This document shows positions 3,639 to 46,105 of a DNA stretch of 64,000 bases, piece by piece; the stretch's first letter is position 1, and every line of letters starts with the position of its first letter. Below the pieces are notes generated by a model, which did not search any database, had not been told where the DNA came from, and was given only the letters and a program-made list of their open reading frames with translations. The position numbers and the translations under genes were made by a program. Origin of the DNA: an uncultured Candidatus Saccharibacteria bacterium (GTDB lineage: Bacteria > Patescibacteriota > SICC01 > CAYSOT01); contig CAYSOT010000001.1 in the NCBI GenBank assembly GCA_964432765.1, positions 66,096 through 130,095 of the forward strand, in the 5' to 3' direction.

Positions 3639-5222
3639 CTACGCCTTCCGGAACCGCCTGAGAAGTACTTTTGCTTCTGGCAAACCCATTCTGTTTGTAA
3701 GCCACAGATAGACCGCGGCCCCGAGCAAAGATCCAACCACCAGCTGCGTAAAGAAGTAAGCGAAGGTAAATCGACTTGAGATTTCCTCGACCAAGAACGC
3801 GACGCCATAGAGACTTCCATAGATAACGACACCCATAACCAGCGAGGCAACAAGCATTTTGGTGACAGCATTGATCATGGCCTGGTCTTCAAGCTGCGGC
3901 ACTTTGGCTGACAAGAAGAAAAAGAGGAGCGAAAGCTGCACAATACTGGCGATCGTGAACGACACCGCTAAGCCGACAACCCCGAGATAGTGCGACGCAA
4001 TTAGCGCTAGGGCGATATTCAGCAGCATACACAACCCGGAAATAATAACTGGCGTCTTGGTGTTGCGTAGAGAATAGAAGGCGCGTGTAAGTAGTGGGAT
4101 CAGCGCTTGGGCGAAAAGACTGACCGCCAATATACCGAGCAGTGAGGTGACATAGCGCGTGTCGGTAAAGTCGAACTTTCCTGAACCAAACGCGACACGA
4201 ACGATTTGGGCGCGCAAAAGCATCATTGCCACTGAGGCTGGAATCACGACGTAGAGAATATTTCGGATCACTTCAAGTAGTGTCGCGAGAAACTTATCGG
4301 TATCGCGCACGCTCGCAGCTCGCGCCAGCACCGGAAATGCGGCGGTCGCAAAAGATGCGCCGACGACTCCGACGGGGATCATCGAAAGACTTGTGGCAAG
4401 CATGAACTGGGAAAGAGAGCCGGGGCGCAGCGTTGTGGCGATTACTGTTTCGATCAAGAGATTAAACTGCAGAATCGCTACGCCGATGGTCGTTGGGATC
4501 ATCAAGATGAATATTCGGCGCACACCCGGGTGTTTAATCTCAAGCACAGGGCGGAACCGAAACTTCGTCCGTACCACCCCAATCAGCTGAACCACCATTT
4601 GCAAAAACGCACCCGAAACAACGCCGATTGCGAGCCAGACCAGACCGTACCTTGGAGCTAGTAGTGCGCCGATGATAATACCAACGTTGTAAATAAGCGG
4701 CGCAATGGCATAGGCCAAGAAACGTTGGTAGGTATTGAGAATGCTGCCAAAGATACCCGACAGACCAAAGAAGATTGGTGAAAGCAGCATGATCCGAGTG
4801 AGTAAGACGACTTCATCGAGCTGCGAAGGCGTAAAACCTGGCGCAACAAGAGGCATGATCTGTGGCGCAAAAATGGCAATAATGCTTGCCGCAAAGATGA
4901 GGACGATCAGCGCAAGCGTCAGAATAGTGGAGCCGACATTGTCTGCTTCACGTTGCTGATGTTTAGCAACATAGCCAGCAAATATTGGGATGAAGGCAGC
5001 CGAGATTGCACCCCAAACGAGAATGTTGAAGACAAAGTCCGGAACTCGAAAAGCCGCATAATAAATATCGAGTTGTGGCCCGGCGCCAAAACCAGACGCC
5101 AGCAAGCGATCGCGCACCAACCCAAGCACACGTGACGCGAGCGACGCGGAGGCAAGAATAACAGTCGCCCCGCCGATCGTGGCAGTAAAGATAGAAAACC
5201 GATTGAGTGTTCGTTTAATCAC
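3639..5222 (-). CDS. murJ: Lipid II flippase MurJ/MviN
   Basis: The 527 aa polytopic membrane protein begins with the MurJ-typical TATIGGATVILASASLASRVLGLVRDRLLASGFGAGPQLDIYYAAFRVPDF. Confidence 0.85.
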   Translation of the reverse strand: MIKRTLNRFSIFTATIGGATVILASASLASRVLGLVRDRLLASGFGAGPQLDIYYAAFRVPDFVFNILVWGAISAAFIPIFAGYVAKHQQREADNVGSTILTLALIVLIFAASIIAIFAPQIMPLVAPGFTPSQLDEVVLLTRIMLLSPIFFGLSGIFGSILNTYQRFLAYAIAPLIYNVGIIIGALLAPRYGLVWLAIGVVSGAFLQMVVQLIGVVRTKFRFRPVLEIKHPGVRRIFILMIPTTIGVAILQFNLLIETVIATTLRPGSLSQFMLATSLSMIPVGVVGASFATAAFPVLARAASVRDTDKFLATLLEVIRNILYVVIPASVAMMLLRAQIVRVAFGSGKFDFTDTRYVTSLLGILAVSLFAQALIPLLTRAFYSLRNTKTPVIISGLCMLLNIALALIASHYLGVVGLAVSFTIASIVQLSLLFFFLSAKVPQLEDQAMINAVTKMLVASLVMGVVIYGSLYGVAFLVEEISSRFTFAYFFTQLVVGSLLGAAVYLWLTNRMGLPEAKVLLRRFRKA

Positions 5223-5280: not shown

Positions 5281-7116
5281 CTACTTTGTGGCGTGCCGGT
5301 TCTTAAGCTTTTCTACGTCGGGGAAGAGCTTGTCGTAGTCTTCGCCTTCGATTGTTTCGTCTTTGAGTAGTCGCTCAGCAATCTCATTGAGCTTCTTGCG
5401 GTTCTTGCGAATGATATCGGCAGCAGTTTTATAAGCAGAGTCGATAATCTGCTTCACTTCAGCATCAATTTCACTGGCAACACGTTCGGAGTAATGCCGT
5501 TGCTCACCCAGTTCGCGACCCAAGAAAACCATTTCCTCACGCTCGCGGTAAGCGATCGTGCCAAGCTTCTCGCTCATTCCGTAATCAACAACCATGCTTC
5601 GTGCAAGCTCGCTCGCCTTTTGAATATCAGATGAAGCACCCGTGGTAACCTCACCGAAGACTGCACGCTCTGCCGCGTGCCCAGCCAAAGCTGCAGCTAG
5701 ATCTTCTTCAAAATCCGGTCGTGATCGAAGGTAGCGTTCTTCATCGGGCATATACCACGTAACGCCGCCTGCTGTTCCCCGGGAAATAATACTCACCTTA
5801 TGCACTGGATCTGGTCTTGGCAGCAGTGTCGCCACAAGCGCGTGCCCTGCTTCGTGATAGGCCACAATCTTCTTTTCCTTCTCGTTCATCATGCGGCTGC
5901 GGCGCTCTGGTCCGAGCAGCACTTTCTCGATCGAGGCCATCAGTTCGGCCTGTCCAACTTTCTTTTTATTACGCCGGGCAGTGAGGATTGCGGCTTCGTT
6001 AAACAGGTTTGCCAGGTCAGCTCCAGCAAATCCTGGGGTCTGTTTCGCTACTTTACCGAGATCGACATCCGAGGCAAGTGGCTTGCCCTTCGCGTGTACG
6101 GCGAGGATTTCTTCGCGCTCGCGCCTGTCTGGACGATCAATGACGACACGCCGATCGAACCGACCTGGGCGCAAAAGCGCTGGATCGAGTACGTCTGGTC
6201 GGTTAGTCGCCGCCATAACAATCACATTCGTATCTTGCTCGAAGCCATCCATCTCGGTAAGGATTTGGTTGAGTGTCTGCTCGCGCTCATCATGGCTTCC
6301 TCCAAGCCCGGCGCCTCGCTGACGTCCGACCGCATCAATTTCGTCGATGAAAATAATGCACGGCGCATTTCGCTTGGCCTTGGCAAAGAGATCACGAACA
6401 CGTGATGCGCCGACACCAACGAACATCTCGACAAATTCGGAACCTGAAATCGAGAAGAAGGGCACGTCGGCTTCACCAGCAACAGCGCGCGCCAGCAGCG
6501 TCTTACCGGTTCCCGGAGGACCAACGAGCAGCACACCCTTTGGAATACGCGCTCCGACGCCAGCAAACTTAGCCGGATACTTGAGAAAATCGACTACTTC
6601 GCGCAGTTCCTCCTTCGCTTCTGTTACACCGGCGACGTCGCTAAACGTGACGCGCTTTTGATCGGCATTGAAGAGTCTGGCACGGCTACGACCAAACGAC
6701 ATGGCCTGGTTATTACCAGATTGCGCCTGGCGAAGCATAAAGTAGAGAAAACCGCCGATCAAAAGAAGCGGAATGATGAATGAGAGTATATTCACCCACG
6801 TCGAGTAGTCTTTCGGAGTCGACTCAGTAACCTCGACTTTAGAGAGCTGTTCATCGGTCACGCCAAACGACTTCAGATAGGCAGGGAGGGACTCACCGAT
6901 ATACTGCGACTCAATCTTTTTGCCACTAGTCGTTTCAACAGTTACCTTACGACCTTCGGTCTGAATAGATTTGACCTGACCGGTCTTCACTTCATCTATC
7001 ACATTTGAGATCGGAACCTGTGAAGGTTGGGTACTCGTAGAAGCGGTAGCCGAATAGATCGCGGCCACAATGAGGACGGCTCCGACAAGATACAGCAGAC
7101 TGCGGAAACTTCGCAT
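5281..7116 (-). CDS. ftsH: ATP-dependent zinc metalloprotease FtsH
   Basis: It has two TM segments, an AAA module ([28 protein letters not shown]) and the zinc protease HEAGHALV motif. Confidence 0.95.
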
Positions 7117-26060: not shown

Positions 26061-26434
26061 TGCTGTCATCGCACTTCGCAAACGATGTTGAGCGCATCGT
26101 GAAGATGGTCCCGCGGGGCCGCCTGGTTACTTATGGTCAAATAGCAGCTTTACTTGGGATGCCGCGTGCCGCGCGGGCTGTTGGGTGGACCGCCCATTGG
26201 GGAGATCCGGATGTTCCCTGGCAGCGAGTAGTCAACCGGAATGGACGGGTTGCGCCGGGTTGGCCAGGAGGCATGCATGCGCACGCCGCCGCACTTGCCA
26301 AAGAGGGTATCAGTATTAACGAAGACTTCTGTGCGGAATTAGAAAAATACCAATGGATACCGTCGGAAAAGGTAATCCAGGAGCTTGGCCTCGAGCCGCT
26401 AGATAAGAAAAACTTTCCCTACGCTTCCGGGTAG
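26060..26434 (+). CDS. Alkyltransferase-like (ATL) protein: MGMT DNA-binding domain with Trp replacing the active-site Cys
   Basis: RLVTYGQIAALLGMPRAARAVG...VPWQRVVNRNGRV carries PWQRV in place of the PCHRV active site of O6-alkylguanine-DNA alkyltransferases. This is the hallmark of ATL damage-sensor proteins. Confidence 0.75.
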   Translation: MLSSHFANDVERIVKMVPRGRLVTYGQIAALLGMPRAARAVGWTAHWGDPDVPWQRVVNRNGRVAPGWPGGMHAHAAALAKEGISINEDFCAELEKYQWIPSEKVIQELGLEPLDKKNFPYASG

Positions 26435-26649
26435 AGCTGCTTTCCGTTTTCATCGTAAACCGTAATGGCAGCAGTTGGACACGATTTTGCAGCATCGAGA
26501 ATCATTTCAAGATCTTCGAGGCTGGCACCTTCTTTCACATAAGCCTTCCCATCGTCACCAAGATCAAAAACGTCTGGGGCAATAGCAACGCAGCTTGCCG
26601 CACCGATACAGAGATCTTCGTTCACGACCACTTTAGAAATTCTCGTCAT
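26419..26649 (-). CDS. Ferredoxin (single-cluster, Cys-x-x-A-x-x-C...CP type)
   Basis: The 76 aa protein has VVNEDLCIGAASCVAIAPDVF...AAKSCPTAAI, a ferredoxin fold with three or four Cys. Confidence 0.7.
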   Translation of the reverse strand: MTRISKVVVNEDLCIGAASCVAIAPDVFDLGDDGKAYVKEGASLEDLEMILDAAKSCPTAAITVYDENGKQLYPEA

Positions 26650-26879
26650 GCTATTGTCTCGTTTATACGCCCGAGCATCTCGTCTACTTCAACTTCTGTC
26701 ATTCCGTGGATCCTCGCGCCCATCTCGACCGTATCAAACTGATTAGCAAAACAGCCGACACAGTGAAGTCCATACTCGAGCATGACTGCTGCAGCCTGAG
26801 GATACGATTTTGCAATGTCGCCAAGATTGCTGTCACGCGTTACGGTAGTGGCTTTGGACATACCAGTAGAATACGCCAT
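26646..26879 (-). CDS. DUF1858-type small redox protein (hybrid-cluster-protein-associated family)
   Basis: The 77 aa protein has LGDIAKSYPQAAAVMLEYGLHCVGCFANQFDTVEMGARIHGMTEVEVDEML, the typical DUF1858 CxGC motif and length. Confidence 0.55.
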   Translation of the reverse strand: MAYSTGMSKATTVTRDSNLGDIAKSYPQAAAVMLEYGLHCVGCFANQFDTVEMGARIHGMTEVEVDEMLGRINETIA

Positions 26880-26884
26880 GCAGC

Positions 26885-27343
26885 TTATTTGGACGAGTCC
26901 AGAGATTGCTCCTGCTTACGCGGATGCGCCAATCTAGCGGCCGCTTCAATGGTCCAGCAGAGATAGAGCTCCGTCCTGTTCTGTTCAGTTATGGCAGTGG
27001 CAAATGGAGTAAATACTCCCGACGGATCACCTGTACTATCATGGCGTTCAATTACCACCCCGTCTGGACGTATTACGACCTCGCTGACACCAGCGGCATG
27101 GTGCTGGCATGCTGTACGTCTGAACGAGAGGTTTGCGCTATAGCTAACGTATTCTTGGCCTGCGTGCTGATAGCGCCGCACGTCATGTTGGACGGTCAGA
27201 AAAAGCGTATCCTCGACGGGTATTTCCGTCTGGGGCGGTATTTGCTCAGCAAATGTACAAATTGCAGACGTCCATTCATCATCTACACGCAAAATGACGC
27301 CTTCAGGTGCTTTCTCTGCGGGCTGTTTGGCTTCTTTGTCCAT
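26885..27343 (-). CDS. Hypothetical protein (152 aa) in the suf/ferredoxin operon
   Basis: The ORF is compact and joined in an operon with its neighbours. No motif is recognised. Confidence 0.4.
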   Translation of the reverse strand: MDKEAKQPAEKAPEGVILRVDDEWTSAICTFAEQIPPQTEIPVEDTLFLTVQHDVRRYQHAGQEYVSYSANLSFRRTACQHHAAGVSEVVIRPDGVVIERHDSTGDPSGVFTPFATAITEQNRTELYLCWTIEAAARLAHPRKQEQSLDSSK

Positions 27344-27349
27344 AGCTGC

Positions 27350-27730
27350 CTACTCTAGCTTCTTGAGTGCTGCTTGAAAAGCACCTCGGGCGAGCCCAGC
27401 GCACTTTACTCTGGCACCAGTGATATCAATGCCCAGTTCATCGGACAAAGGAATATTTTCATTGCTCAGAGCTTCGGCAACGCTTTTGCCAAGAACGCGC
27501 TCCATGAGGATTGATGCAGAAGCGATTGAAATCGCACATCCTGCTCCGTCAAAGCGAATATCGCTAATGACTCCATTTTCTATCTGGATATCAATCGTTA
27601 AGCTATCCCCGCACACCGGGTTGTGGGCAGTATGCGAAATTGTTGGATTTTTGAGGGTCCCCCGGTTGCGAGGATTTCGGTAATGGTCGAGGATGTGCTC
27701 TCGATACAAATCCACTAGACAACTTTCCAC
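27350..27730 (-). CDS. sufU: Fe-S cluster assembly scaffold/sulfur-transfer protein SufU (NifU N-terminal-like)
   Basis: The N-terminus is HYRNPRNRGTL. The three conserved Cys lie in NPVCGDS, GAGCAIS and RVKCAGL. Confidence 0.85.
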   Translation of the reverse strand: MESCLVDLYREHILDHYRNPRNRGTLKNPTISHTAHNPVCGDSLTIDIQIENGVISDIRFDGAGCAISIASASILMERVLGKSVAEALSNENIPLSDELGIDITGARVKCAGLARGAFQAALKKLE

Positions 27731-28323
27731 GAATCGCCGTGGACGATAACGGCATGCTCATTGCTTAGCCCGATGATGTCTTGTCGTTTTTCCCGTTTCA
27801 ATATCTCACTAGTCTGAGGCTCAAATCGCGGATCGTTCAGATGCGGAACAATATCTACTGGACACCATCCAAGACCCTTCGTGTCGGCCAGTGTCGGTGC
27901 GACAGCGGCTTCGTCTATGGCATCAATATAGGCAATATCCCGACAGGCAATAATTGAACCGGCCGACGAGCCAATGTAGAGATTTCCTTGTTCAACATAT
28001 GCGTTCAACACATCTTCGATGTTACTTTTCTTGATTTGGTCGAGAAGGTAGTAGGTGTTTCCTCCAGCCACAAACAATACATCTGCTTTCGAAAGCGCCT
28101 TGGCGGTATCTTCAGAGTTAGTGTCGGCAAAATCATAGATATCTATCTGGAAACCAAAGGACCGAAGCGCCTGAAACGAGCCGCTCATTTCCACCGGGTC
28201 GCTCTCGAGATTCTTCGCGGTTTTCACATACAGTAGCCGCAGCGATTCCGGACTACGGGGCAGGACTTCATAGAGCTTTTGAAGCGACTGGTCGATTTGA
28301 GAAGCAAGAAAGAGAGTTTTCAT
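27715..28323 (-). CDS. Peptidase S51 family (dipeptidase E / cyanophycinase-like), copy 1
   Basis: VLFVAGGNTYYLLDQ and IGSSAGSIIA fit the S51 Ser nucleophile motif, and a His lies near the C-terminus. Confidence 0.7.
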   Translation of the reverse strand: MKTLFLASQIDQSLQKLYEVLPRSPESLRLLYVKTAKNLESDPVEMSGSFQALRSFGFQIDIYDFADTNSEDTAKALSKADVLFVAGGNTYYLLDQIKKSNIEDVLNAYVEQGNLYIGSSAGSIIACRDIAYIDAIDEAAVAPTLADTKGLGWCPVDIVPHLNDPRFEPQTSEILKREKRQDIIGLSNEHAVIVHGDSWKVV

Positions 28324-28943
28324 CAGAGAATTGTTACTTGTCCATCCTTAACGCAGATGGCTTGCTCATCGCGTATCGGTTGAAGACGGTGGGCAGTATA
28401 TCCGCTTTCAAGAACTTCTTTGGCCTGAGCAGCCCAGAGGTCACTGTTAACATGGGGAACCGGAATAAAATCAAGAAGTCCTATCCCTTTGGTGTCGGTG
28501 ATGTTGGCGAGAGATGGATCATCCATTGGCTCTATCGGACCAATGTCTGGACCGAGCACAATTGCCCCGGCTGACGAACCAACAATTGTGAGGTTTCTCT
28601 TGATTGTGTGCAGATAGGTATCGAATCCGCTTTCCCGAACTGCTTGCAGCAAGTAGTAAGCACTACCGCCGCCAATATGAATTACCTCCGCCTCATCAAG
28701 CATTTTCTTTAGTGATTCTGGTGATTGTTGAACGAGCCAACACAATTCAATCTTGAAATGCTTCTCGTACATGTGACGGTCCTCGTCTTGGTCGTAGGTA
28801 TATCCAAGCGGCGTTGCAGCATCGGGTACCATATGGACCACACCTTTCTTTGCCGCGCTCTTCAGTTCAGGCAAAAATTTGCGCAGACTTAGTGCGGTTT
28901 GAGAGCAGAGATAGTATGTCGTTTTAGCCATGAAAGGTTTCAA
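28323..28943 (-). CDS. Peptidase S51 family, copy 2 (tandem paralog)
   Basis: VIHIGGGSAYYLLQA and VGSSAGAIVL give the same architecture as the adjacent gene. The two genes abut at 28323. Confidence 0.7.
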   Translation of the reverse strand: MKPFMAKTTYYLCSQTALSLRKFLPELKSAAKKGVVHMVPDAATPLGYTYDQDEDRHMYEKHFKIELCWLVQQSPESLKKMLDEAEVIHIGGGSAYYLLQAVRESGFDTYLHTIKRNLTIVGSSAGAIVLGPDIGPIEPMDDPSLANITDTKGIGLLDFIPVPHVNSDLWAAQAKEVLESGYTAHRLQPIRDEQAICVKDGQVTIL

Positions 28944-30129
28944 GAGCAGTCTTTAGTGCTTGATGTGCTTGCTCAATATCTTCCTTTGTATTGTAAACCG
29001 CCAGCGAGATTCGTGCGCTAGCGGGAATTCCAAGACGAGTATGTAGCGGCTCGGCACAGTGATGTCCCGACCTGATTGCAACACCCTGCTGATCAAATAT
29101 CGTCGCTAAATCGTGAGGATGGATACCGTCGACCACAAACGAGACTACTCCGACACGCTCCGCTGAACCAAGAACCGAAACGCGCTTTTCGGTGCTGAGC
29201 ATCTCAAGAAGCTCTCTGGTCAGCATCTGTTCATGGTCGCTAATCGTCTTCAGCCCGATCTTTTCGATAAACTCGAAAGCTGCCTGCATACCAATCGCTT
29301 CTGCCACAGGCATTGTCCCAGCCTCAAATCGATACGGCGGATCGGCATACGTTGCGTGCCCAAGCTCAACTGAACGAATCATCTCTCCTCCGCCATAGAC
29401 TGGCGGGAGTTCGGCTAGTAGTTCAGGTTTTACCCATAAAGCTCCGACACCGAAGGGCCCGTAAGCTTTGTGCCCTGAAAAGGCATACGCGTCGACCCCA
29501 AGATCCCGAACGTCAACGGCGAGTCTGCCGACGGCCTGAGCACCGTCGACAATCATGTGAGTATTAGCATCTTTTGCCATGCGTGAAAGTTTTTTGATTG
29601 GATTTATACATCCAAGCACATTCGAAACATGGCAGCAGGCAAAAACCGATGCGCCTTCGAGTTTCCGCTCAACATCTTCGAGATCTAGCGATCCATCGTC
29701 GGCAATGGAGGCAAAACGTAGTTGTATGCCTTTCTCTTCCGCTAACAGATACCACGGAATGAGGTTCGCGTGATGCTCCATCTCTGTCAGCAAAACTGTG
29801 TCACCTTGTCGCAGGTACTTTTTTGCATATGACAAAACGAATTGATTGAGGCTTTCAGTAGTGCCCCGCGTAAATACAACTTCCTCACTGGATGCGCCTA
29901 TAAAACTCGCGACCTTCCTGCGCGCATTCTCAAATGCATTCGTAGCAGCCTCCGAAAGACTGTGTACACCCCGATGCGGATTCGCGTTTGAGTTGCGATA
30001 AAAATAATCCATTGCATCCAAAACGTGCTGCGGTCGCTGGGTTGTGGCAGCGTTATCAAGGTATGAAAGCCTGGTTGTGCTTGCCTTAGCAAAAATCGGA
30101 AATTGCGCGATGATCTTGTTTTCGTCCAT
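28924..30129 (-). CDS. sufS: Cysteine desulfurase SufS (class V aminotransferase)
   Basis: Pyridoxal-phosphate Lys region: FSGHKAYGPFGVGAL. Catalytic Cys: RSGHHCAEPL. The protein is 401 aa. Confidence 0.9.
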   Translation of the reverse strand: MDENKIIAQFPIFAKASTTRLSYLDNAATTQRPQHVLDAMDYFYRNSNANPHRGVHSLSEAATNAFENARRKVASFIGASSEEVVFTRGTTESLNQFVLSYAKKYLRQGDTVLLTEMEHHANLIPWYLLAEEKGIQLRFASIADDGSLDLEDVERKLEGASVFACCHVSNVLGCINPIKKLSRMAKDANTHMIVDGAQAVGRLAVDVRDLGVDAYAFSGHKAYGPFGVGALWVKPELLAELPPVYGGGEMIRSVELGHATYADPPYRFEAGTMPVAEAIGMQAAFEFIEKIGLKTISDHEQMLTRELLEMLSTEKRVSVLGSAERVGVVSFVVDGIHPHDLATIFDQQGVAIRSGHHCAEPLHTRLGIPASARISLAVYNTKEDIEQAHQALKTALETFHG

Positions 30130-30145: not shown

Positions 30146-31381
30146 CTAACCCTTCTGCTTAGCGAGCTGGCTGCCAGATAATCGTTCGGTTATTTCTGAG
30201 AGAAATGATTCCCGCACACTTTTACTTGGAATGTTTTGAATCAGATCGGTAAAGAAGCCTTCGACAATCAGGCTCTTTGCGGCTTCTTCCGGCAAACCCC
30301 TGCTCATGAGGTAAAAGAGCGCCTGTTCATCTATTTGCCCCACAGTAGCCCCATGTCCCGCCGTCACATCATCGGCATCAATCTCGAGACCAGGAATTAA
30401 GTCGGCATGGGCGGTGTCTGACAAAAGCATGGCATGACCATTTTGATCTGCACTCGTTCCATGTGCACCTGGCTGGATCTTGATCATTCCCCGATAGACT
30501 GCGCGCGCAGTTTCGTCGACTACTCCGCGTGCGTACGTTTCGGATGTAGCGTGACCCGAAACATGGTTTGCCTCAAGCGTGAAATCAAAGTGCTGACTAC
30601 TGCTTCCAAAGAACGTAGAGCGGACGTTCGACTGTGCGCCTTCGCCAATAAGCTTTGATTCAACATGAATCTGGGATTTGCCAGATCCAAACGTTCCAAT
30701 CATCCAATCAAGTGATGCGTCACGTGCGATGGCTGCCTGGTAGACCGCCAAATTTATGACTGATTCTGGCCAAGCTTGTTTTGCGGTATAGGAGACTCGT
30801 GACTCGTCGTGTGCATAGACTTCCACGCCATGCAGAGCAATAGAGTCTTCACCCATATCGGAAGCAGTAGTTGTTGAATCATAGATATCAGCTACTGCAC
30901 CCTCTCCCACAATAAAAAGACTTCGCCACACATTAAGTGCGCCGGTTTTGGCGCTAAATCGTGTCTCTACTCTGAGTTTTGTCCGTGGTGGTACCACGAC
31001 GACAATCCCGTCTCGAAAAAAAGCACCTGAAAGAGCCGAGAAAAGATGGTCTTCGGCAGGTAGGGCATCACCGAGCATTGAGGCAGCAACGTGCTCTGGC
31101 CAATCATGAATGGCCTTGGACAGCGGTATGGCGATTGGCTTCAGACCGGTGCCGCAATCATCTGCTTCAAACGCAATCTCGGGTGTATCACCAGCGAGCG
31201 GCAAAGAGCTAAGTAAATCAGCAAGTCCGTATCGTTCCCAGCTGAAATACTTCTTGTCGGATGGAATAGCTAGCTTAGGGGCAATGTTTCGTGCCAAACG
31301 CCGTTTAGTTGCAATCGATTTCGGCTCTGCGGGAACGTACTTTGGCAGCCGTAGGTTGGGCTGTGTGCTTGTCTTATCCAA
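30146..31381 (-). CDS. sufD: Fe-S cluster assembly protein SufD
   Basis: It has the SufB/D family C-terminus (ADLIPGLEIDADDVTAGHGATVGQIDEQALFYLMSRGL) but lacks the sufB-specific N-terminus. Its position after sufB also supports the call. Confidence 0.8.
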   Translation of the reverse strand: MDKTSTQPNLRLPKYVPAEPKSIATKRRLARNIAPKLAIPSDKKYFSWERYGLADLLSSLPLAGDTPEIAFEADDCGTGLKPIAIPLSKAIHDWPEHVAASMLGDALPAEDHLFSALSGAFFRDGIVVVVPPRTKLRVETRFSAKTGALNVWRSLFIVGEGAVADIYDSTTTASDMGEDSIALHGVEVYAHDESRVSYTAKQAWPESVINLAVYQAAIARDASLDWMIGTFGSGKSQIHVESKLIGEGAQSNVRSTFFGSSSQHFDFTLEANHVSGHATSETYARGVVDETARAVYRGMIKIQPGAHGTSADQNGHAMLLSDTAHADLIPGLEIDADDVTAGHGATVGQIDEQALFYLMSRGLPEEAAKSLIVEGFFTDLIQNIPSKSVRESFLSEITERLSGSQLAKQKG

Positions 31382-32783
31382 CGCTTCCCTCCATCTCGAG
31401 TTGGATTAATCGATTTAGCTCTACGGCATACTCAAGCGGTAGTTCCTTGACGACTGGTTCAAGAAATCCTGAAACAATCATCGAGATTGCTTCTTCTTCG
31501 GTCAGGCCACGACTCATCAGGTAGAAAAGTTGCTCCTGGCCAATTCTCCCCACAGTTGCTTCGTGAGCAACGGTTACTTTGTCTTCAGATATTTCGATAT
31601 GCGGCAACGTGTCGGACACACTCCGCTCGTCCATAATCAGCGCATCACATTGAATATTTGCCGTGGCTCGCTCTGCTCCTTTTACAATCTTCAATAGCCC
31701 CCGATAGGCACCGCGTCCGCCATCTTTTGAAATCGACTTGGCAACAACTCGTGATTTCGTATCGGGAGCACCATGAATGACTTTGGCTCCGGTATCCTTG
31801 TCGACCTTTCCGACGGCCAAGGCAATATTGAGATGCTCGCAAGACGCCCCTCGTCCTACTAGCCACGAGGCCGGGTACAGCATAGTTGTTCCACTACCGA
31901 GACTTCCTCCGACCCACTCATGGTGCGCATCCTGCTGGATTATGGCTCGCTTAGTGTTGAGGTTATAGACATTCTTTGACCAGTTCTGAACCGTTGTGTA
32001 GCGTGACCGTGCACCCTGCCCAACAAAGATTTCAACAACCGCGGAGTGGAGTGAAGCGCTCGAATAAAGAGGGGCTGTGCATCCTTCGATGTAATGAACT
32101 TCGGCTCCCTCTTCAACAATAATTAGGGTGTGCTCAAACTGACCTTGGCCAGATGCGTTCATACGGAAGTATGTCTGCAATGGCATTTCCACTTTCACCC
32201 CTGCCGGTACATACAAGAACGAACCGCCCGACCAAACTGCGCCGTGCAATGCTGAAAACTTATTATCGTGTCGCGGCACGCATTTGGTCATGAAGTACTG
32301 GCGCACGAGCTCTTCGTGTTCCTTTAGAGCCGTATCCATGTCGCAGAAAATAACACCTTGTTTTTCCCATGGTCGTTGAAGCGATTTATAGACGGTTTCA
32401 GAATCATACATCGCAACAACACCAGCGAGCATTTTTTGCTCAGCTTCCGGAATCTTAAGCTTGTTAAAAGTTTCCTTCATTTCTGCAGGCAAATCGTCCC
32501 ATGATGGTTTGATCTCGTCAGTTGGGCGAATGTAGTAGGTGAGCGCATCGAAATCGATACCTGATAGATCGGGGCCCCAGGTCGGTACTGGTTTTGATTC
32601 AAAGATTTCGAAGGATTTAAGCCGGAACTGGCGCATCCATTCGGGCTCGCCCTTTTGGTATGAGATGTCTTCGACAACTCCGCGTGTGAGTCCGGGTTTT
32701 GATCGATAAACAGACCTATCGGGATCTTGATGACGGAACCTATCGAGACCGGCTGTAACCCCCCGAACAACCGAGTCACTCAT
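31374..32783 (-). CDS. sufB: Fe-S cluster assembly protein SufB
   Basis: The 469 aa protein has GGSFLYVPAGV and ISEDKVTVAHEATVGRIGQEQLFYLMSRGLTEEEA. Confidence 0.9.
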   Translation of the reverse strand: MSDSVVRGVTAGLDRFRHQDPDRSVYRSKPGLTRGVVEDISYQKGEPEWMRQFRLKSFEIFESKPVPTWGPDLSGIDFDALTYYIRPTDEIKPSWDDLPAEMKETFNKLKIPEAEQKMLAGVVAMYDSETVYKSLQRPWEKQGVIFCDMDTALKEHEELVRQYFMTKCVPRHDNKFSALHGAVWSGGSFLYVPAGVKVEMPLQTYFRMNASGQGQFEHTLIIVEEGAEVHYIEGCTAPLYSSASLHSAVVEIFVGQGARSRYTTVQNWSKNVYNLNTKRAIIQQDAHHEWVGGSLGSGTTMLYPASWLVGRGASCEHLNIALAVGKVDKDTGAKVIHGAPDTKSRVVAKSISKDGGRGAYRGLLKIVKGAERATANIQCDALIMDERSVSDTLPHIEISEDKVTVAHEATVGRIGQEQLFYLMSRGLTEEEAISMIVSGFLEPVVKELPLEYAVELNRLIQLEMEGSVG

Positions 32784-33570
32784 CGAGGGGTTCCTGGTCC
32801 TTTCGGCGAATCAAGCGGATCGAGTTCTGAGTTGGGTCTTCTTCAGAATGGTCTTCATCAATCAGGTTGAGCAGACCTTCCGGAAAATCGACCCCGGCAC
32901 CGATGTGTTTGAGAATACCAATTTCAGTTTCGATATCGGGAATTCCAAGCCAGTCTGCATCCTGATACTCGAGCCGAAGTTGGGGTTCTCGAAGCTCTCG
33001 GGGCAAAAGGTCTTCCTGATCTGGCTGGTCCGGGTGCACCACTTCAATTGACGGAGCATTTGGCACAGCACCAATAAACTCATGGATGATTGCCGCAGCC
33101 GCCCCGGGATTTTGGCAGGCTTCTCTGGTCAACCAAATACGCCAGTCTGCGGCTGTGTCTGGCTCGTCTTGCCAGGCTTCATCAATCGGATCTTCAACCT
33201 CAACTGACGATACTGCTTCCATTGCCTCTTGGAGAGCATCGCCTCCGTCAACATCGGGCGTATCCATTACCATCCGCGTAACGCTCACCGTATAGGGAGT
33301 ATCGTCATGCGATGCGAGAAAACCAAATTCTCCCCGATCAATATGTCTTAGAAATGAGTCTACGGCTGCATCGCCTCCAAGCTCTGGGTGAAGCTCGCCA
33401 AAATCAACAACCCCATCTCCGTATAGTGGTTCATCGGAGACTATTCGCTCAGCTAAAGATACGTGGACATCATCAAGCTCATCAGGATTAAATGAGACTT
33501 CCTCTTCCTCCGAAGCTGGGAAAAATAGCAGCTCTGCGCGAAAATAATTCTCTTCGCGTTCGGGCATCAC
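32776..33570 (-). CDS. Highly acidic hypothetical protein (264 aa) embedded between sufC and sufB
   Basis: It is rich in Asp/Glu ([10 protein letters not shown]...EEEEVSFNPDELDD...) and has no recognisable domain. An 8-nt overlap with sufB and a 4-nt overlap with the upstream gene imply co-translation. Confidence 0.45.
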   Translation of the reverse strand: MMPEREENYFRAELLFFPASEEEEVSFNPDELDDVHVSLAERIVSDEPLYGDGVVDFGELHPELGGDAAVDSFLRHIDRGEFGFLASHDDTPYTVSVTRMVMDTPDVDGGDALQEAMEAVSSVEVEDPIDEAWQDEPDTAADWRIWLTREACQNPGAAAAIIHEFIGAVPNAPSIEVVHPDQPDQEDLLPRELREPQLRLEYQDADWLGIPDIETEIGILKHIGAGVDFPEGLLNLIDEDHSEEDPTQNSIRLIRRKDQEPLDE

Positions 33571-34025
33571 GAATCACATGGGTTATGCGGATAGGGTGTA
33601 CCGTGCCAGCCTGGCCGGCGAGGATGGTAGGGATATTTCCCGGGATCAAGCGATTCGCGTCGACGCTCCTCTTCGGGTGAAATGATTCGCTCCTCATTCT
33701 CCTGCAGAGTCTGAAACACGGCCTCATCTAAAATGGCTTGCCGGTTGAGATAGTACTCTTCTGCGTAGGCTCCATCTAGACCGGTTGGTGGGAGTGTATC
33801 TAGCGAATCAGCCGAAGGGAAATCATCCAGCGAACACCCTTCGCTACCCCGCGTTCTGGTGCTCGGTAAGTGCGTTGCCATAATTAGCCCGAGCATAGTC
33901 TGGTAATCCTCGGCAGTGCGCAGTGCTGTCGGTTTGGCCAGCTCAAATTCAAACGGCGCTTCTTTTAGTTGTTCTATTATCCGCTCAATATCGCCTGGTT
34001 GGTTTCGCTCTACTTCTTTAGCCAT
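33567..34025 (-). CDS. Hypothetical protein (152 aa) embedded between sufC and sufB
   Basis: It overlaps sufC by 16 nt and has a Pro/Tyr/His-rich C-terminus ([23 protein letters not shown]). Nothing in it is recognisable. Confidence 0.45.
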
Positions 34026-34798
34026 GCGTATCCTTTTTGTTCAAGTTCGGCGACTAGTTCTGGTGGTCCAGTCTCGATAATCTTGCCTTCAGCCATGACA
34101 TGAACAATATCAGGCTTAACGTAATTAAGAATCCGCTGATAGTGCGTTATCAACAGAATGGACATCTCTGGACTGTCTTTTTTCAAAGCGTTGATTCCTT
34201 TAGCCACAATCTGCAGCGCATCAATGTCGAGTCCCGAATCAGTTTCGTCGAGTATCGCGAGCTTGGGTTGCAATAGAGCCATCTGCAGCATTTCAGCCCG
34301 TTTTTTTTCACCGCCGGAGAAGCCTTCGTTTAGGTAGCGATCGCTAAAGTCTTCGGACATTTCGAGCAGACTCATTTTCTCTTTTAAAACCCTGCGGAAT
34401 TCTAAGACGGTTAGTGGCGTCTCGCCACGTGCTTCACGAACCGCATTCACAGCTTGGCGAAGAAAATGCGCAACAGACACACCGGCAATTTCTTGCGGAT
34501 ACTGAAATGCCAAAAATACGCCTGCTTTTGCACGCTCATCTGGCGAAAGCTTAAATAGTGAATTGCCGTTAAAGACAGCATCACCTTGTGTCACTTCGTA
34601 CTTTGGGTGACCCATCAAGACTGAGGACAGCGTCGACTTGCCTGAACCATTTGGCCCCATCAAGGCATGCACTTTGCCGGCAACAACGTCGAGATCGACC
34701 CCCTTGAGTATTTCAGTCTCTTCGACCCGCGCGTGTAGGTTCTTTATGCGCAGTATACTCATGTGCACATCATACCTTGGTATTGACAAATCTCTCAA
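34010..34798 (-). CDS. sufC: Fe-S cluster assembly ATPase SufC
   Basis: Walker A: [12 protein letters not shown] signature: FSGGEKKR. Walker B: [12 protein letters not shown]. The length of 262 aa is typical of SufC. Confidence 0.95.
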
Positions 34799-34820: not shown

Positions 34821-35234
34821 ATGGCAATAGAAGGAACGCCAGATTACCCCATCGACGAAGGCCGTCCGGCCCGCAGGCCTGAGGAAATGCGCACTGATCC
34901 GCATGCCGAACGTAACCCAGATGCCGCGCGCGGGATCGCTGTACTAACCCAGCTTAGCGAAGTAGCGAAGGCAAGCCGTGAAGGCGCCCTACACGAAGAA
35001 GAGCGTACAGAAGTGACCCGCAGACTACGGCATTCGCTAGCGGCGCTTGGGATCGTACTGGAGCAAGACTCAGCTCTGATGCGCGAGGTTGTTTTCTCGC
35101 ACTATGGCTTGCACGCAGATGAGCCCCCACGAACATTGGTTGAGATAGCAGAAGCAACAGGGGAAGATCTCGCCTATGTCGGCACGCTTGTCGACCACGG
35201 GGCGACGCTTGTTGGCGCTCATTTCCACGAATAA
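34821..35234 (+). CDS. Hypothetical small protein with possible C-terminal HTH
   Basis: [22 protein letters not shown] resembles a sigma70 region-4-like HTH. The rest is a charged N-terminus. Tentative. Confidence 0.35.
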
Positions 35235-35289: not shown

Positions 35290-35859
35290 TTAGTACGTGT
35301 ACGTGCTTGTCGTATCGATGGTTGATGCTGCAGCAAATACTCCGAGCGCGATTAGCAAGAAGAAGAATAGCCACATGGCGGCCCCGATGACCGTAACGGC
35401 GATTTCACCGCCGCTGAACTTAGCTTCAGTTGCCTGACCTGCAGACTTCGTGTCCCAGTACTTGTTTAGCTCGCTAATAACAAGCCCCATAATAATGTAG
35501 TTGATGGGGCTTATTAGCATTAGTACCGCATAGAGCACTGCTTGGAAACCTGACGCACCGGCAGAGCGCTGTAGCTTATCGATGTCACGATAGAGCCAGT
35601 AGAGAACAAAGATATTGAGAATTGGTACGAACAAACCTAGTGTCTGCAAACCTGTATTGTCGTTGCTTCCAAGCTCGTTGGTAACTTTCTCTCGTGTCAC
35701 GTAAAACCAATAAATCATATAAAGGCCAAATGAAACGAGCGTGAGCAGCAATACGCGCACAACGCTTCGCTTTACGGCCCAATTGCCACTGGCATTTTGA
35801 ACACTCGGCGCTGGTTGTTCAGCTGGAGTTTCTTGAGTTGGTTGTACTTCGTCTAGCAT
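35290..35859 (-). CDS. DUF4234-like small membrane protein, copy 1
   Basis: The motifs WAVKRSVVRVLLLTLVSFGLYMIYWFY...NDNTGLQTLGLFVPILNIFVLYWLYRDI match those in the adjacent gene, which makes the two a tandem paralog pair. Confidence 0.55.
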   Translation of the reverse strand: MLDEVQPTQETPAEQPAPSVQNASGNWAVKRSVVRVLLLTLVSFGLYMIYWFYVTREKVTNELGSNDNTGLQTLGLFVPILNIFVLYWLYRDIDKLQRSAGASGFQAVLYAVLMLISPINYIIMGLVISELNKYWDTKSAGQATEAKFSGGEIAVTVIGAAMWLFFFLLIALGVFAAASTIDTTSTYTY

Positions 35860-35877
35860 GTTTCTCCTTAGTTGTTA

Positions 35878-36612
35878 TTAGTAGCTAAAGTCGACAGAAT
35901 TATTAGTCTTTACTGTATCGGTTGAAGAAGTGTCACTCAGCGCTCCGGTAATTCCGTTGAGCACCCACAGAACGACTCCGATGATGATCACGATAATCTC
36001 GCCCTGTGAGAATTTGGCATCAGACGCCTGATTATTACTTCTAACATCCCAGTAGTTATTAAGTTTGCTAATCGCCAGCCCAGCAAAGACGTAATAGAGG
36101 ATACCCCCAACGATCATGAGCAAGATTGCCGGAATGATAAACAATGCAGCTCCTCCGATCGCAAGGCCCGCATTACCTGAAACTGCTGCACCTGCACCAA
36201 CAATGAGGCCGAGTATAAACAGAGCAATCCCACCAAAGAGAAGGCCCAGTGGGAGAAATACGTACATTCCAGCGGAAAATCCTTCAAGATTGTTTTCTCG
36301 GCGCACGCGGTTAATATCTCGGAAAATCCAGTAGATAATAAAGAGATTCAAAATCGGAACGATGAGCCCGATTGTCTGAAGACCCGCATTGTCATCGGTT
36401 TTCAGCTCCCGAGAGAGAATCCGCCGGTTTTGATAAAACCAATAAAACCAGTAGAGTCCACTCGTAACCCACGAAAGTCCAAAGACTCGGATTACGCTGT
36501 ATTTGATTTTCCATTCTTCTGGACGATTAACATCCTTCGCAAGTGGAGACGCCGCAGGCGCTGTGGGCGCTTCTACGGGAGCGGGTGTTGGCTGTTCATT
36601 TTCGTCGGCCAT
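35878..36612 (-). CDS. DUF4234-like membrane protein, copy 2 (extra Gly/Ala-rich TM region)
   Basis: KIKYSVIRVFGLSWVTSGLYWFYWFY...DDNAGLQTIGLIVPILNLFIIYWIFRDI parallels the motifs of copy 1. Confidence 0.55.
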   Translation of the reverse strand: MADENEQPTPAPVEAPTAPAASPLAKDVNRPEEWKIKYSVIRVFGLSWVTSGLYWFYWFYQNRRILSRELKTDDNAGLQTIGLIVPILNLFIIYWIFRDINRVRRENNLEGFSAGMYVFLPLGLLFGGIALFILGLIVGAGAAVSGNAGLAIGGAALFIIPAILLMIVGGILYYVFAGLAISKLNNYWDVRSNNQASDAKFSQGEIIVIIIGVVLWVLNGITGALSDTSSTDTVKTNNSVDFSY

Positions 36613-44873: not shown

Positions 44874-44938
44874 GCTTACCTACCTTTCAACGAGCCTGGA
44901 CGAAGAATACGTCTTGTGCGAAATGGCGGCAAGTAGAC

Positions 44939-45283
44939 CTAGCGGAAGCTGTGCCCTCCCTTGCCGCTGAAGCCGCGGCGATTCGGGCCACGGAAGCGCG
45001 CATCGGGAACGGGCCGCTTCGGCATCTGCTGGTGCGAGTCGCTGATCACGACGCGACGCAGGACGGGCTCTGCGTTGCTGGCACCGGGCTCGTGACCCTC
45101 CGTGGTCACCTCTTCGAGCGTCATCTCACCGGCGAGGATGAGATCGACGAGACTGCGGATCTGGTTGACTGGAACGCCGGCCTGCAGCAGTCGCCGGTTG
45201 AGTTCGACACGCTCAGCGAGCATCTGCGAACGTGCGTCGTCGGTGTGGACCACAACGCCAGTGATGGTGTCGATGGTGGTCAT
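44939..45283 (-). CDS. Hypothetical protein on GC-rich island (Arg/Gly-rich C-terminus)
   Basis: MTTIDTITGVVVHTDDARSQ...RFRGPNRRGFSGKGGHSFR is about 65% GC with high third-position GC, which is unlike the rest of the window. Confidence 0.45.
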   Translation of the reverse strand: MTTIDTITGVVVHTDDARSQMLAERVELNRRLLQAGVPVNQIRSLVDLILAGEMTLEEVTTEGHEPGASNAEPVLRRVVISDSHQQMPKRPVPDARFRGPNRRGFSGKGGHSFR

Positions 45284-45775
45284 GGGGGTGTACTCACTTT
45301 CATTCGGGGAACGATACTGCCCACTAGCAACGATGATTCGTTACCGGTGAGCAGTATCGTCTATGCCTACATGATGCTAAGGTGCTGCCTTGACAGGGTG
45401 CTGCCAAAGCCATCAAAGGTACTATATTTTCCCTTTATTGTCAATAAAAATAGACTTCACCAATAGAAAGAACGCGAAGTATTTGGAGATAACTTCGCGC
45501 TCATGCGCACGCTAGGATGGGAGAATGTGGCGGTGCCGGAGAGGGGGCAGGGGATGATTCCTCTCCGGCACCAGCCGTTTACCGCCAGGGTCGTTGTTGC
45601 TCGGGAATACGGGGACCAGGGGGTCCGGCGTGCTCTCGAGTGGCGCGGATTCCGTGGCGGAGCCTGTCGACGTCGGCGCGATCGTGATGACCAGGGCCAT
45701 CTGGACGATGGGCAAACGCCCGGTTGGGGACAGCCTCTTGCTGCCTGTCGTCGTTTCGCCGATCATCCATGATCG

Positions 45776-46030
45776 TTACACCTGGCCGTGATACCGCGGT
45801 GCCGCCTTCGAAGCGTCGGGGATGAGCCCGACGAGACAGGCCGTCATCTGCAGCATCGACTGCTTTGCCGGCGGACCCTCGACTCGCGAGACGTAACCGC
45901 AACCGCGACAAACCCGAAGGCCGTTGCGCTCGTTGTGGATCCGGTCCGTGCCGCACTGCGCGCAGTGCTCTCTCGTCTCGAGAATTGGCTCGAACCCGGT
46001 TCGGATTTCGGTACTACAGGTTTGGACCAT
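45776..46030 (-). CDS. Hypothetical zinc-ribbon protein (CxxC...CxxC), GC-rich
   Basis: The motif CAQCGTDRIHNERNGLRVCRGCG is present. Overlapping alternative ORFs exist on both strands, so this may be a gene remnant. Confidence 0.3.
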   Translation of the reverse strand: MVQTCSTEIRTGFEPILETREHCAQCGTDRIHNERNGLRVCRGCGYVSRVEGPPAKQSMLQMTACLVGLIPDASKAAPRYHGQV

Positions 46031-46105
46031 AACCGCTCCCGGTTGTTGAACGTGCTGGTTGCATGCTACGCCCCTGGAAGAACTAGGGCAAGAATGCCAT
46101 ACTGA

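Follow-up and report, generated by a model that had tools for sequence, protein, structure and literature searches.

The 64,000-nt stretch analyzed here (the window) comes from an uncultured Candidatus Saccharibacteria bacterium (contig CAYSOT010000001.1). Near its center lies a suf operon for iron-sulfur (Fe-S) cluster assembly, in which two open reading frames (ORFs) without a recognizable family, orf152 and orf264, stand between sufC and sufB. Coordinates are positions within the window unless another locus is named, and gene order is read on the minus strand, where sufC, orf152, orf264, sufB, sufD, and sufS follow one another head to tail (Table 1), with stop and start codons that overlap from sufC through sufD. 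The identities that NCBIfam equivalog models give to SufC, SufB, SufD, and SufS are also backed by Pfam. The longest frame for sufC opens at a TTG and spans 34010-34798; its homologues begin at the ATG at 34762, which gives a protein of 250 amino acids (aa). The first-pass annotation of this DNA had reported two unknown proteins of 152 and 264 aa between sufC and sufB, with overlaps of 16, 4, and 8 nt, and its coordinates, sizes, and overlaps are correct as read. The 264 aa of the second (32776-33570), however, take the GTG at 33570 as the start, and the ATG one codon farther in is the likelier one (the public record has 263 aa, and homologues have the equivalent codon).

The junctions around the two ORFs are very tight. 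The orf152 ATG falls within the last codons of sufC (…GCATGGCTAAAGAAGTAG; GCA TGG CTA AAG AAG TAG) and is preceded, 5 nt ahead, by an AAAGGA motif that resembles a Shine-Dalgarno sequence. The orf152 stop and the orf264 start are joined as TGATG (GTGATG with the GTG start), and the orf264 stop overlaps the start of sufB (ATGAGTGA), so that the overlaps sufC/orf152, orf152/orf264, and orf264/sufB are 16, 1 (or 4), and 8 nt, respectively. A scan of the sequence found neither promoter-like nor terminator-like sites within orf152 or orf264. The operon may have an mRNA with little or no leader, since the one promoter-like match near the operon ends only 7 nt before the sufC ATG. By position, strand, translational coupling, and this lack of an internal promoter or terminator, orf152 and orf264 appear to be co-expressed members of the suf operon.

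Coding status and character of orf152 and orf264

Among the 51 ORFs of the window orf264 is the most acidic and orf152 the second most acidic. The orf264 protein contains 67 Asp and Glu residues versus 16 Lys and Arg residues, which gives it a net charge of about -51 and an isoelectric point (pI) of 4.05. The extreme acidity noted at first reading therefore stands, but the accompanying description of "many D/E runs" was overstated; only three runs of three or more acidic residues are present (EEEE, DED, and EED), and the acidity is otherwise diffuse. Conserved hydrophobic and aromatic patches (LAERIVSD, PYxVSVTR, WRxW, AAAIIxEF, and TEIGILKHIGAGVD) indicate that this protein is not purely of low complexity. 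The orf152 protein (pI 4.67) is acidic apart from its tail, which has a charge of +4; this 25-residue tail does not differ among any of the five variants known and bears a Cys three residues from its end. The Uversky charge-hydropathy boundary places both proteins among disordered ones, and nine of nine comparators from the window fall on its other side. Their AlphaFold2 models, made from very shallow alignments, are too poor for fold comparison (for orf264, mean predicted local distance difference test score [pLDDT] 32.4 and predicted template modeling score 0.27; for orf152, pLDDT 44.1).

The gene pair is conserved beyond this genome, beside sufC and sufB, in related lineages recovered from metagenomes. 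The order sufC, 152-aa ORF, 267-aa ORF, sufB is found on syntenic contigs from other metagenomes (loci L001-L005 and L011, one of which was added by a metagenome scan), and a third lineage (loci L007-L010) has the same sufC-sufB content; locus L006 is identical to the window. The wastewater metagenome project PRJEB14051 supplied several of these contigs, and wastewater is the only documented source of the lineages. Amino acid identities between the window and L001 are 95% for SufB, 91% for orf152, 86% for SufC, 76% for SufS, 73% for SufD, and 57% for orf264, so that orf152 is about as conserved as SufC. Identities among the three lineages are 87-92% for orf152, and orf264 of the window is 54-58% identical to those of the two other lineages. 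The reading frames are kept in all three, every orf264 indel is in frame, and the GC content at third codon positions (GC3) of both ORFs is the same as that of the flanking genes. The ratio of nonsynonymous to synonymous change (omega, by the Nei-Gojobori method, NG86), calculated for L001 and L007 as the less saturated pair, is 0.065 for sufC, 0.084 for orf152 (range 0.06-0.08), and 0.115 for orf264. These comparisons show orf152 and orf264 to be genuine protein-coding genes under purifying selection, within one small clade only.

Synonymous divergence is lower in orf152 than in its surroundings; between the window and L001 the codons differ at 33% of identical residues, as against 53-60% in six neighboring genes. 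An overlapping ORF does not account for this, since there are stops in every alternative frame, and a structured RNA was likewise rejected, with z = -0.7 and neither covarying pairs nor an Rfam match. L001 and L007 group together in sufC and orf264, with the window as their outgroup. In the middle of orf152 this signal vanishes, while lineage-specific changes persist, and the orf152 phylogeny conflicts with those of both flanking genes. L001 and L004, moreover, are identical in sufC and orf264 and have about 12 clustered differences in the 3' third of orf152. The pattern suggests recombination between lineages within orf152, which explains it better than constraint at the nucleotide level does.

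Neither protein matched any family in searches of all Pfam-A and NCBIfam models (hmmscan, E<=1), and this includes the models for SufE (PF02657), SufA or IscA (PF01521), SufT or DUF59 (PF01883), SufU or NifU_N (PF01592), and CyaY/frataxin (PF01491); no SUFBD_core match (PF01458) was obtained when the two were considered as SufB/SufD paralogues. PADLOC models (defense and toxin/antitoxin) and PHROGs models gave no match to either, searches of PDB sequences returned only chance matches (best E 0.41 in the frataxin test), and no relatives were found in viral contigs or plasmids. The earlier description of both proteins as unknown, and as unlike any described Suf accessory, is thus borne out for SufA, SufE, SufT, SufU, and SufR as well as for the families and PDB sequences in these collections. 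A word-indexed search of 5.8 billion clusters recovered the ORFs' own clade only, and an orf264 HMMER profile run against 1.84 billion representative proteins recovered only orf264 itself and one fragment. Derivation from Suf genes or from a paralogue in the window was rejected: alignment of the ORF families with hhalign to SufB, SufD, SufC, and SufS of the window gave probabilities of <=0.3%, and no paralogue of either ORF was found inside the window. A mobile-element origin is not indicated (no flanking repeats, native GC3). By eye the orf152 tail looked similar to the N-terminus of SufB (R..DP...Y...PG), but BLAST and hhalign did not support this and it was dropped.

The sufC-sufB junction in sister lineages

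A SufB search delimits a tight clade with 78-95% identity, after which identity falls to 66%. In eight of the nine sampled lineage groups of this clade, family-less ORFs are present at the sufC-sufB junction (Table 1). Seven sister lineages have there an arginine-rich micro-protein of 45-58 aa with a net charge of +11 to +14 and the C-terminal sequence RHYDYEVKK. No HYDYE-type peptide is present in any frame of the window, and the micro-protein is also absent from the outgroup L015. The other ORFs at this position have pI values of 4.05-4.96, with the exception of the 124-aa protein of L012 (pI 6.1). None of the proteins at this junction, the micro-protein included, matches a family; ten of those from sister lineages were searched against Pfam, NCBIfam, PADLOC, and PHROGs.

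The acidic 239-aa protein of L018 is homologous, over its residues 156-239, to the C-terminal module of orf152 (residues 73-152; BLASTP E 1e-6). The hhalign probability for this tail comparison is 91% (E 1e-6), and its Smith-Waterman score of 88 was reached by none of 5000 composition-preserving shuffles (mean 25.7, standard deviation 5, maximum 66); the alignment takes in the Cys at position -3. The orf152 gene belongs with the sister ORFs both by position and by homology to one of their products. On the other hand, orf264 has no detectable similarity to any of the sister proteins and has only position and composition in common with them. Taken together, these comparisons show orf152 and orf264 to be the local form of a fast-evolving cassette at the sufC-sufB junction of one clade, probably Patescibacteria. 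The cassette was either gained after the split from L015 or lost in L015. Co-occurrence of this particular gene pair with sufBCD, which had been proposed as a check, is seen within a genus-level clade of three lineages but does not extend to the sister lineages, which hold different ORFs at the junction. No description of such inserts was found in the literature on SUF in Patescibacteria, and the cassette is not previously described in the sources searched.

Table 1. Features in and around the suf operon of the window, and content of the sufC-sufB junction in sister lineages (percentages are SufB identities to the window)
Sequence	Feature	Position	Strand	Evidence or remark
Window	sufC (Fe-S assembly ATPase), first operon gene	34010..34762	minus	NCBIfam TIGR01978, 3.8e-108; 250 aa
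Window	orf152, 152-aa orphan, acidic body and Pro/Tyr/His/Arg-rich tail	33567..34025	minus	ORF list, conservation
Window	orf152 C-terminal module, residues 73-152	33570..33809	minus	sole region for which a relative beyond the window's own lineage was detected
Window	orf264, polyanionic orphan, 263 aa from ATG 33567	32776..33567	minus	ORF list, conservation
Window	sufB	31374..32783	minus	NCBIfam TIGR01980, 6e-208
Window	sufD	30146..31381	minus	NCBIfam TIGR01981, 1.9e-70
Window	sufS (cysteine desulfurase)	28924..30129	minus	NCBIfam TIGR01979, 2e-149
Window	tandem pair of Peptidase_S51 genes, sufS-sufU junction	27715..28943	minus	Pfam marks in syntenic locus L001
Window	sufU-type scaffold gene (NifU_N)	27350..27730	minus	
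Window	second orphan ORF, 152 aa, after sufU-type gene	26885-27343	minus	
Window	DUF1858 gene, downstream of sufU-type gene	26646-26879	minus	
Window	ferredoxin gene, downstream of sufU-type gene	26419-26649	minus	
Window	sigma-70-like promoter match TTGAGA-18-TATGAT	34769..34798	minus	ends 7 nt 5' of sufC ATG; sole match near operon
Window	137-aa orphan ORF, divergent from sufC	34821-35234	plus	58 nt from sufC start
Window	two adjacent paralogous DUF4234-type membrane protein genes	35290-36612	minus	between superoxide dismutase (SOD) gene and 137-aa ORF
Window	GC-rich stretch (0.60 vs about 0.50 elsewhere)	44900-46100	both	only short, mutually overlapping ORFs
Window	84-aa ORF, CxxC…CxxC zinc-ribbon-like pattern, within GC-rich stretch	45776-46030	minus	
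Window / L001 / L007	152 aa + 263-267 aa			100% / 95% / 
L012	124 aa + 49-aa basic + 196-aa acidic + 265-aa acidic	4443-4592 (basic)		89%
L019	basic of at least 45 aa + 118-aa acidic + 128-aa acidic	3-140 (basic)		88%; contig edge
L017	46-aa basic + 84-aa acidic	5617-5757 (basic)		86%
L021	58-aa basic + 81-aa ORF	4555-4731 (basic)		85%
L013	58-aa basic + 84-aa acidic	5581-5757 (basic)		85%
L018	50-aa basic + 239-aa acidic	4905-5057 (basic)		84%
L020	uncalled basic peptide + 83-aa ORF	about 230-364 (basic)		82%
L015/L016	outgroup, junction empty			78%; sufC/sufB overlap 8 nt (canonical state)

Gene content also varies among the sister lineages at the sufB-sufD, sufD-sufS, and sufS-sufU junctions, and these differences make the whole suf operon a mosaic of lineage-specific insertions. 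The tandem Peptidase_S51 pair at the sufS-sufU junction, for example, is found only in the lineage of the window and L001. The SufC protein of L013 (4718-5584) has a basic, Ala/Lys/Pro-rich C-terminal extension of 38 aa that is absent from the other SufC proteins of the clade.

On the other side of the promoter-like match, the divergent 137-aa ORF is kept in the sister loci (66% identity to its L001 counterpart; a 142-aa equivalent in L012) and matches nothing in Pfam or NCBIfam; the last third of its protein looks helix-turn-helix-like by eye, and it could be a candidate regulator of the suf operon. The two DUF4234-type paralogues beyond it are 34-37% identical across paralogues (tblastn versus L001), and sister lineages have a single DUF4234-type copy or a BLIP-domain variant. 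Farther away, the GC-rich stretch at 44900-46100 may be foreign or non-coding DNA.

Possible roles of the junction proteins

In a translationally coupled operon, a gene placed between those for two subunits of the same complex usually has a functional link to them. The reading favored here, with somewhat less than even confidence, is that orf152 and orf264 encode a clade-specific, non-catalytic accessory or adaptor pair that is made together with SufC and SufB and works at or near SufBC2D. It is favored because the slot is situated between two subunits of one complex, because the same kind of content fills this slot in nearly every lineage group of the clade, because orf152 is as constrained as SufC, and because the orf152 tail is a conserved proline-rich arm with His and Cys that could dock or could relay sulfur or metal. 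Both products would be made at the same place as SufC and SufB, probably in fixed proportion, and would act on, or beside, the SufBC2D scaffold. The orf152 protein would dock, or relay sulfur or metal, by means of its invariant proline/aromatic/arginine tail with its His and Cys residues, and orf264, in this view a mostly disordered polyanion in which some hydrophobic patches are conserved, might bind cations, of which iron is the obvious candidate, or else a basic partner. To our knowledge no iron donor has been established for SUF. A more ambitious version, in which the whole cassette is a clade-specific SUF module made up of polyanionic iron handlers, the Cys-tailed orf152 as relay or docking protein, and, in the sisters, the arginine-rich micro-protein, seems improbable at present; if it were true, it would offer a natural handle on how iron reaches SufBC2D.

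A number of observations weigh against an accessory role. Among the other cassette proteins no Cys/His motif is conserved, with the exception of the tail of the L018 239-aa protein. Since SufB, SufC, and SufD also have acidic pI values (5.4-6.1), a protein with a charge of -51 has no obvious electrostatic partner among them. The extreme turnover at the slot before sufB is not what one would expect of proteins that partner a highly conserved machine; L013 and L021 have SufB proteins that are 96% identical and basic peptides that are 62% identical, and the ORFs before sufB (84 and 81 aa) are only 17% identical. The outgroup L015 manages without the cassette, and suf operons in general are not known to carry it. 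Finally, other suf junctions carry, depending on the lineage, genes for NUDIX, PNPOx, CutA1, HD, FtsX_ECD, or S51 peptidase proteins, or orphans; the operon therefore tolerates passengers, and position within it is weaker evidence for an Fe-S role than the first-pass annotation assumed.

The main rival explanation follows this last line of thought: the suf operon could be a permissive, constitutively expressed landing site, and orf152 and orf264 could be passengers that exploit its promoter and translational coupling but whose roles are unrelated to Fe-S assembly, for example in a lineage-specific interaction with a host or the environment. We consider this only somewhat less likely than the accessory reading. 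Besides the assorted genes at the other junctions, it is favored by the rapid change in what the sufC-sufB slot holds from one very closely related lineage to the next, by the confinement of the proteins to one genus-level clade, by the absence of the cassette from L015, and by the disagreement of the orf152 phylogeny with its flanks, which suggests movement between lineages by recombination. However, where the other junctions are varied, the sufC-sufB slot repeats a basic micro-protein together with family-less, mostly acidic proteins, and this repetition points to one inherited, position-specific cassette. Purifying selection on orf152 is also as strong as on SufC, and even some of the apparent passengers (NUDIX and CutA1, with the adjacent SOD and DUF1858 genes) could share a theme of metal or oxidative stress.

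The composition of the cassette allows another explanation, in which an ancestral arginine-rich micro-protein, possibly toxic or binding nucleic acids or membranes, was accompanied by acidic neutralizers, and the window lineage has since lost the basic peptide, for which the basic orf152 tail may partly substitute. The strongly basic peptide does adjoin mostly acidic family-less proteins in the seven sister lineages, no frame of the window encodes one, and orf152 joins an acidic body to a basic tail. Yet models of toxins, antitoxins, and defense genes find no match, neither mobile-element features nor flanking repeats are present, and there are no phage or plasmid relatives; furthermore, acidic genes should decay once their partner is lost, whereas these are under purifying selection. 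This history is improbable.

It is also quite improbable that the two ORFs are translated spacers that act in cis, tuning translation of sufB relative to that of sufC by termination and reinitiation, with proteins that are themselves nearly irrelevant. Such a role would suit the overlap of stop and start codons at every boundary, the sister ORFs of 81-84 aa that diverge very fast at similar length, and a predicted disordered, acidic composition that would be harmless. However, an omega of about 0.1 and the 91% identity of orf152 show that in the window lineage the amino acid sequence itself is selected, and the conserved hydrophobic patches and the invariant 25-residue tail argue in the same direction.

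A frataxin- or CyaY-like function for the acidic protein, as iron donor or regulator for SUF, had been raised earlier as pure speculation, along with a chaperone-like or metal-buffering one, and nothing was found that links the proteins to either. The frataxin idea draws only on the acidity and location of orf264 and on the general lack of a known SUF iron donor, and it is very unlikely: Pfam and NCBIfam models give nothing at E<=1 and PDB sequences give no match either, a protein of 263 aa that is predicted to be largely disordered contrasts with the compact frataxin fold of about 110 aa, and orf264 evolves fast where frataxin is highly conserved. The notion that the two are chance open frames or a mis-annotation in an enlarged intergenic region, although it would fit the absence of database homologues and the low AlphaFold confidence, has next to no probability and is already refuted by the conserved frames, the omega near 0.1, the exclusively in-frame indels, and the coupling to neighboring genes.

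Known systems and significance

Like the canonical SUF accessories SufE, SufU, SufA, SufT (DUF59), and SufR, which are small, are encoded inside suf operons, and are co-expressed with SufBC2D, orf152 and orf264 are suf operon genes whose products would be made with the scaffold. Unlike them, they lack sequence similarity to any such protein in Pfam and NCBIfam at E<=1, are confined to a few closely related lineages where the canonical accessories are widespread, and, besides their predicted disorder, have a much stronger acidity; the window operon, moreover, already has SufU and SufS. CyaY/frataxin shares with orf264 its acidity and, under the favored reading, a possible tie to the delivery of iron, or to its regulation, during Fe-S assembly, but it is small, folded, and slowly evolving and works with ISC, whereas orf264 is 263 aa long, carries a charge of -51, evolves fast, and lies in a SUF operon. 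Polyanionic decoys or DNA mimics (such as Ocr and ArdA) and acidic solubility or "entropic bristle" proteins resemble orf264 in overall charge and in a pI near 4; orf264 differs from these in having no homology to them and no phage, plasmid, or defense context. A likeness in kind is also seen to the taxonomically restricted orphan genes found in conserved operons of Patescibacteria (candidate phyla radiation), which also lack a family, have a narrow range, evolve fast, and sit among dense overlapping genes. The present ORFs differ from other such orphans in that they hold one junction between two subunits of one complex, in that sister lineages have similar content at this junction, and in that the orf152 tail module and the RHYDYEVKK micro-protein can be traced across lineages.

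The finding is narrow, since the lineages involved are few, uncultivated, and known from metagenomes alone. Should the cassette proteins indeed act together with SufBC2D, SUF would gain a new class of accessory factor, and there would be a lead on how its iron is delivered or buffered. If they have no SUF role, the junction would still be a clean natural case of the rapid birth, replacement, and divergence of orphan genes within an essential, otherwise highly conserved operon of a reduced genome, and a caution to anyone who reads function from a place in an operon in genomes of this kind.

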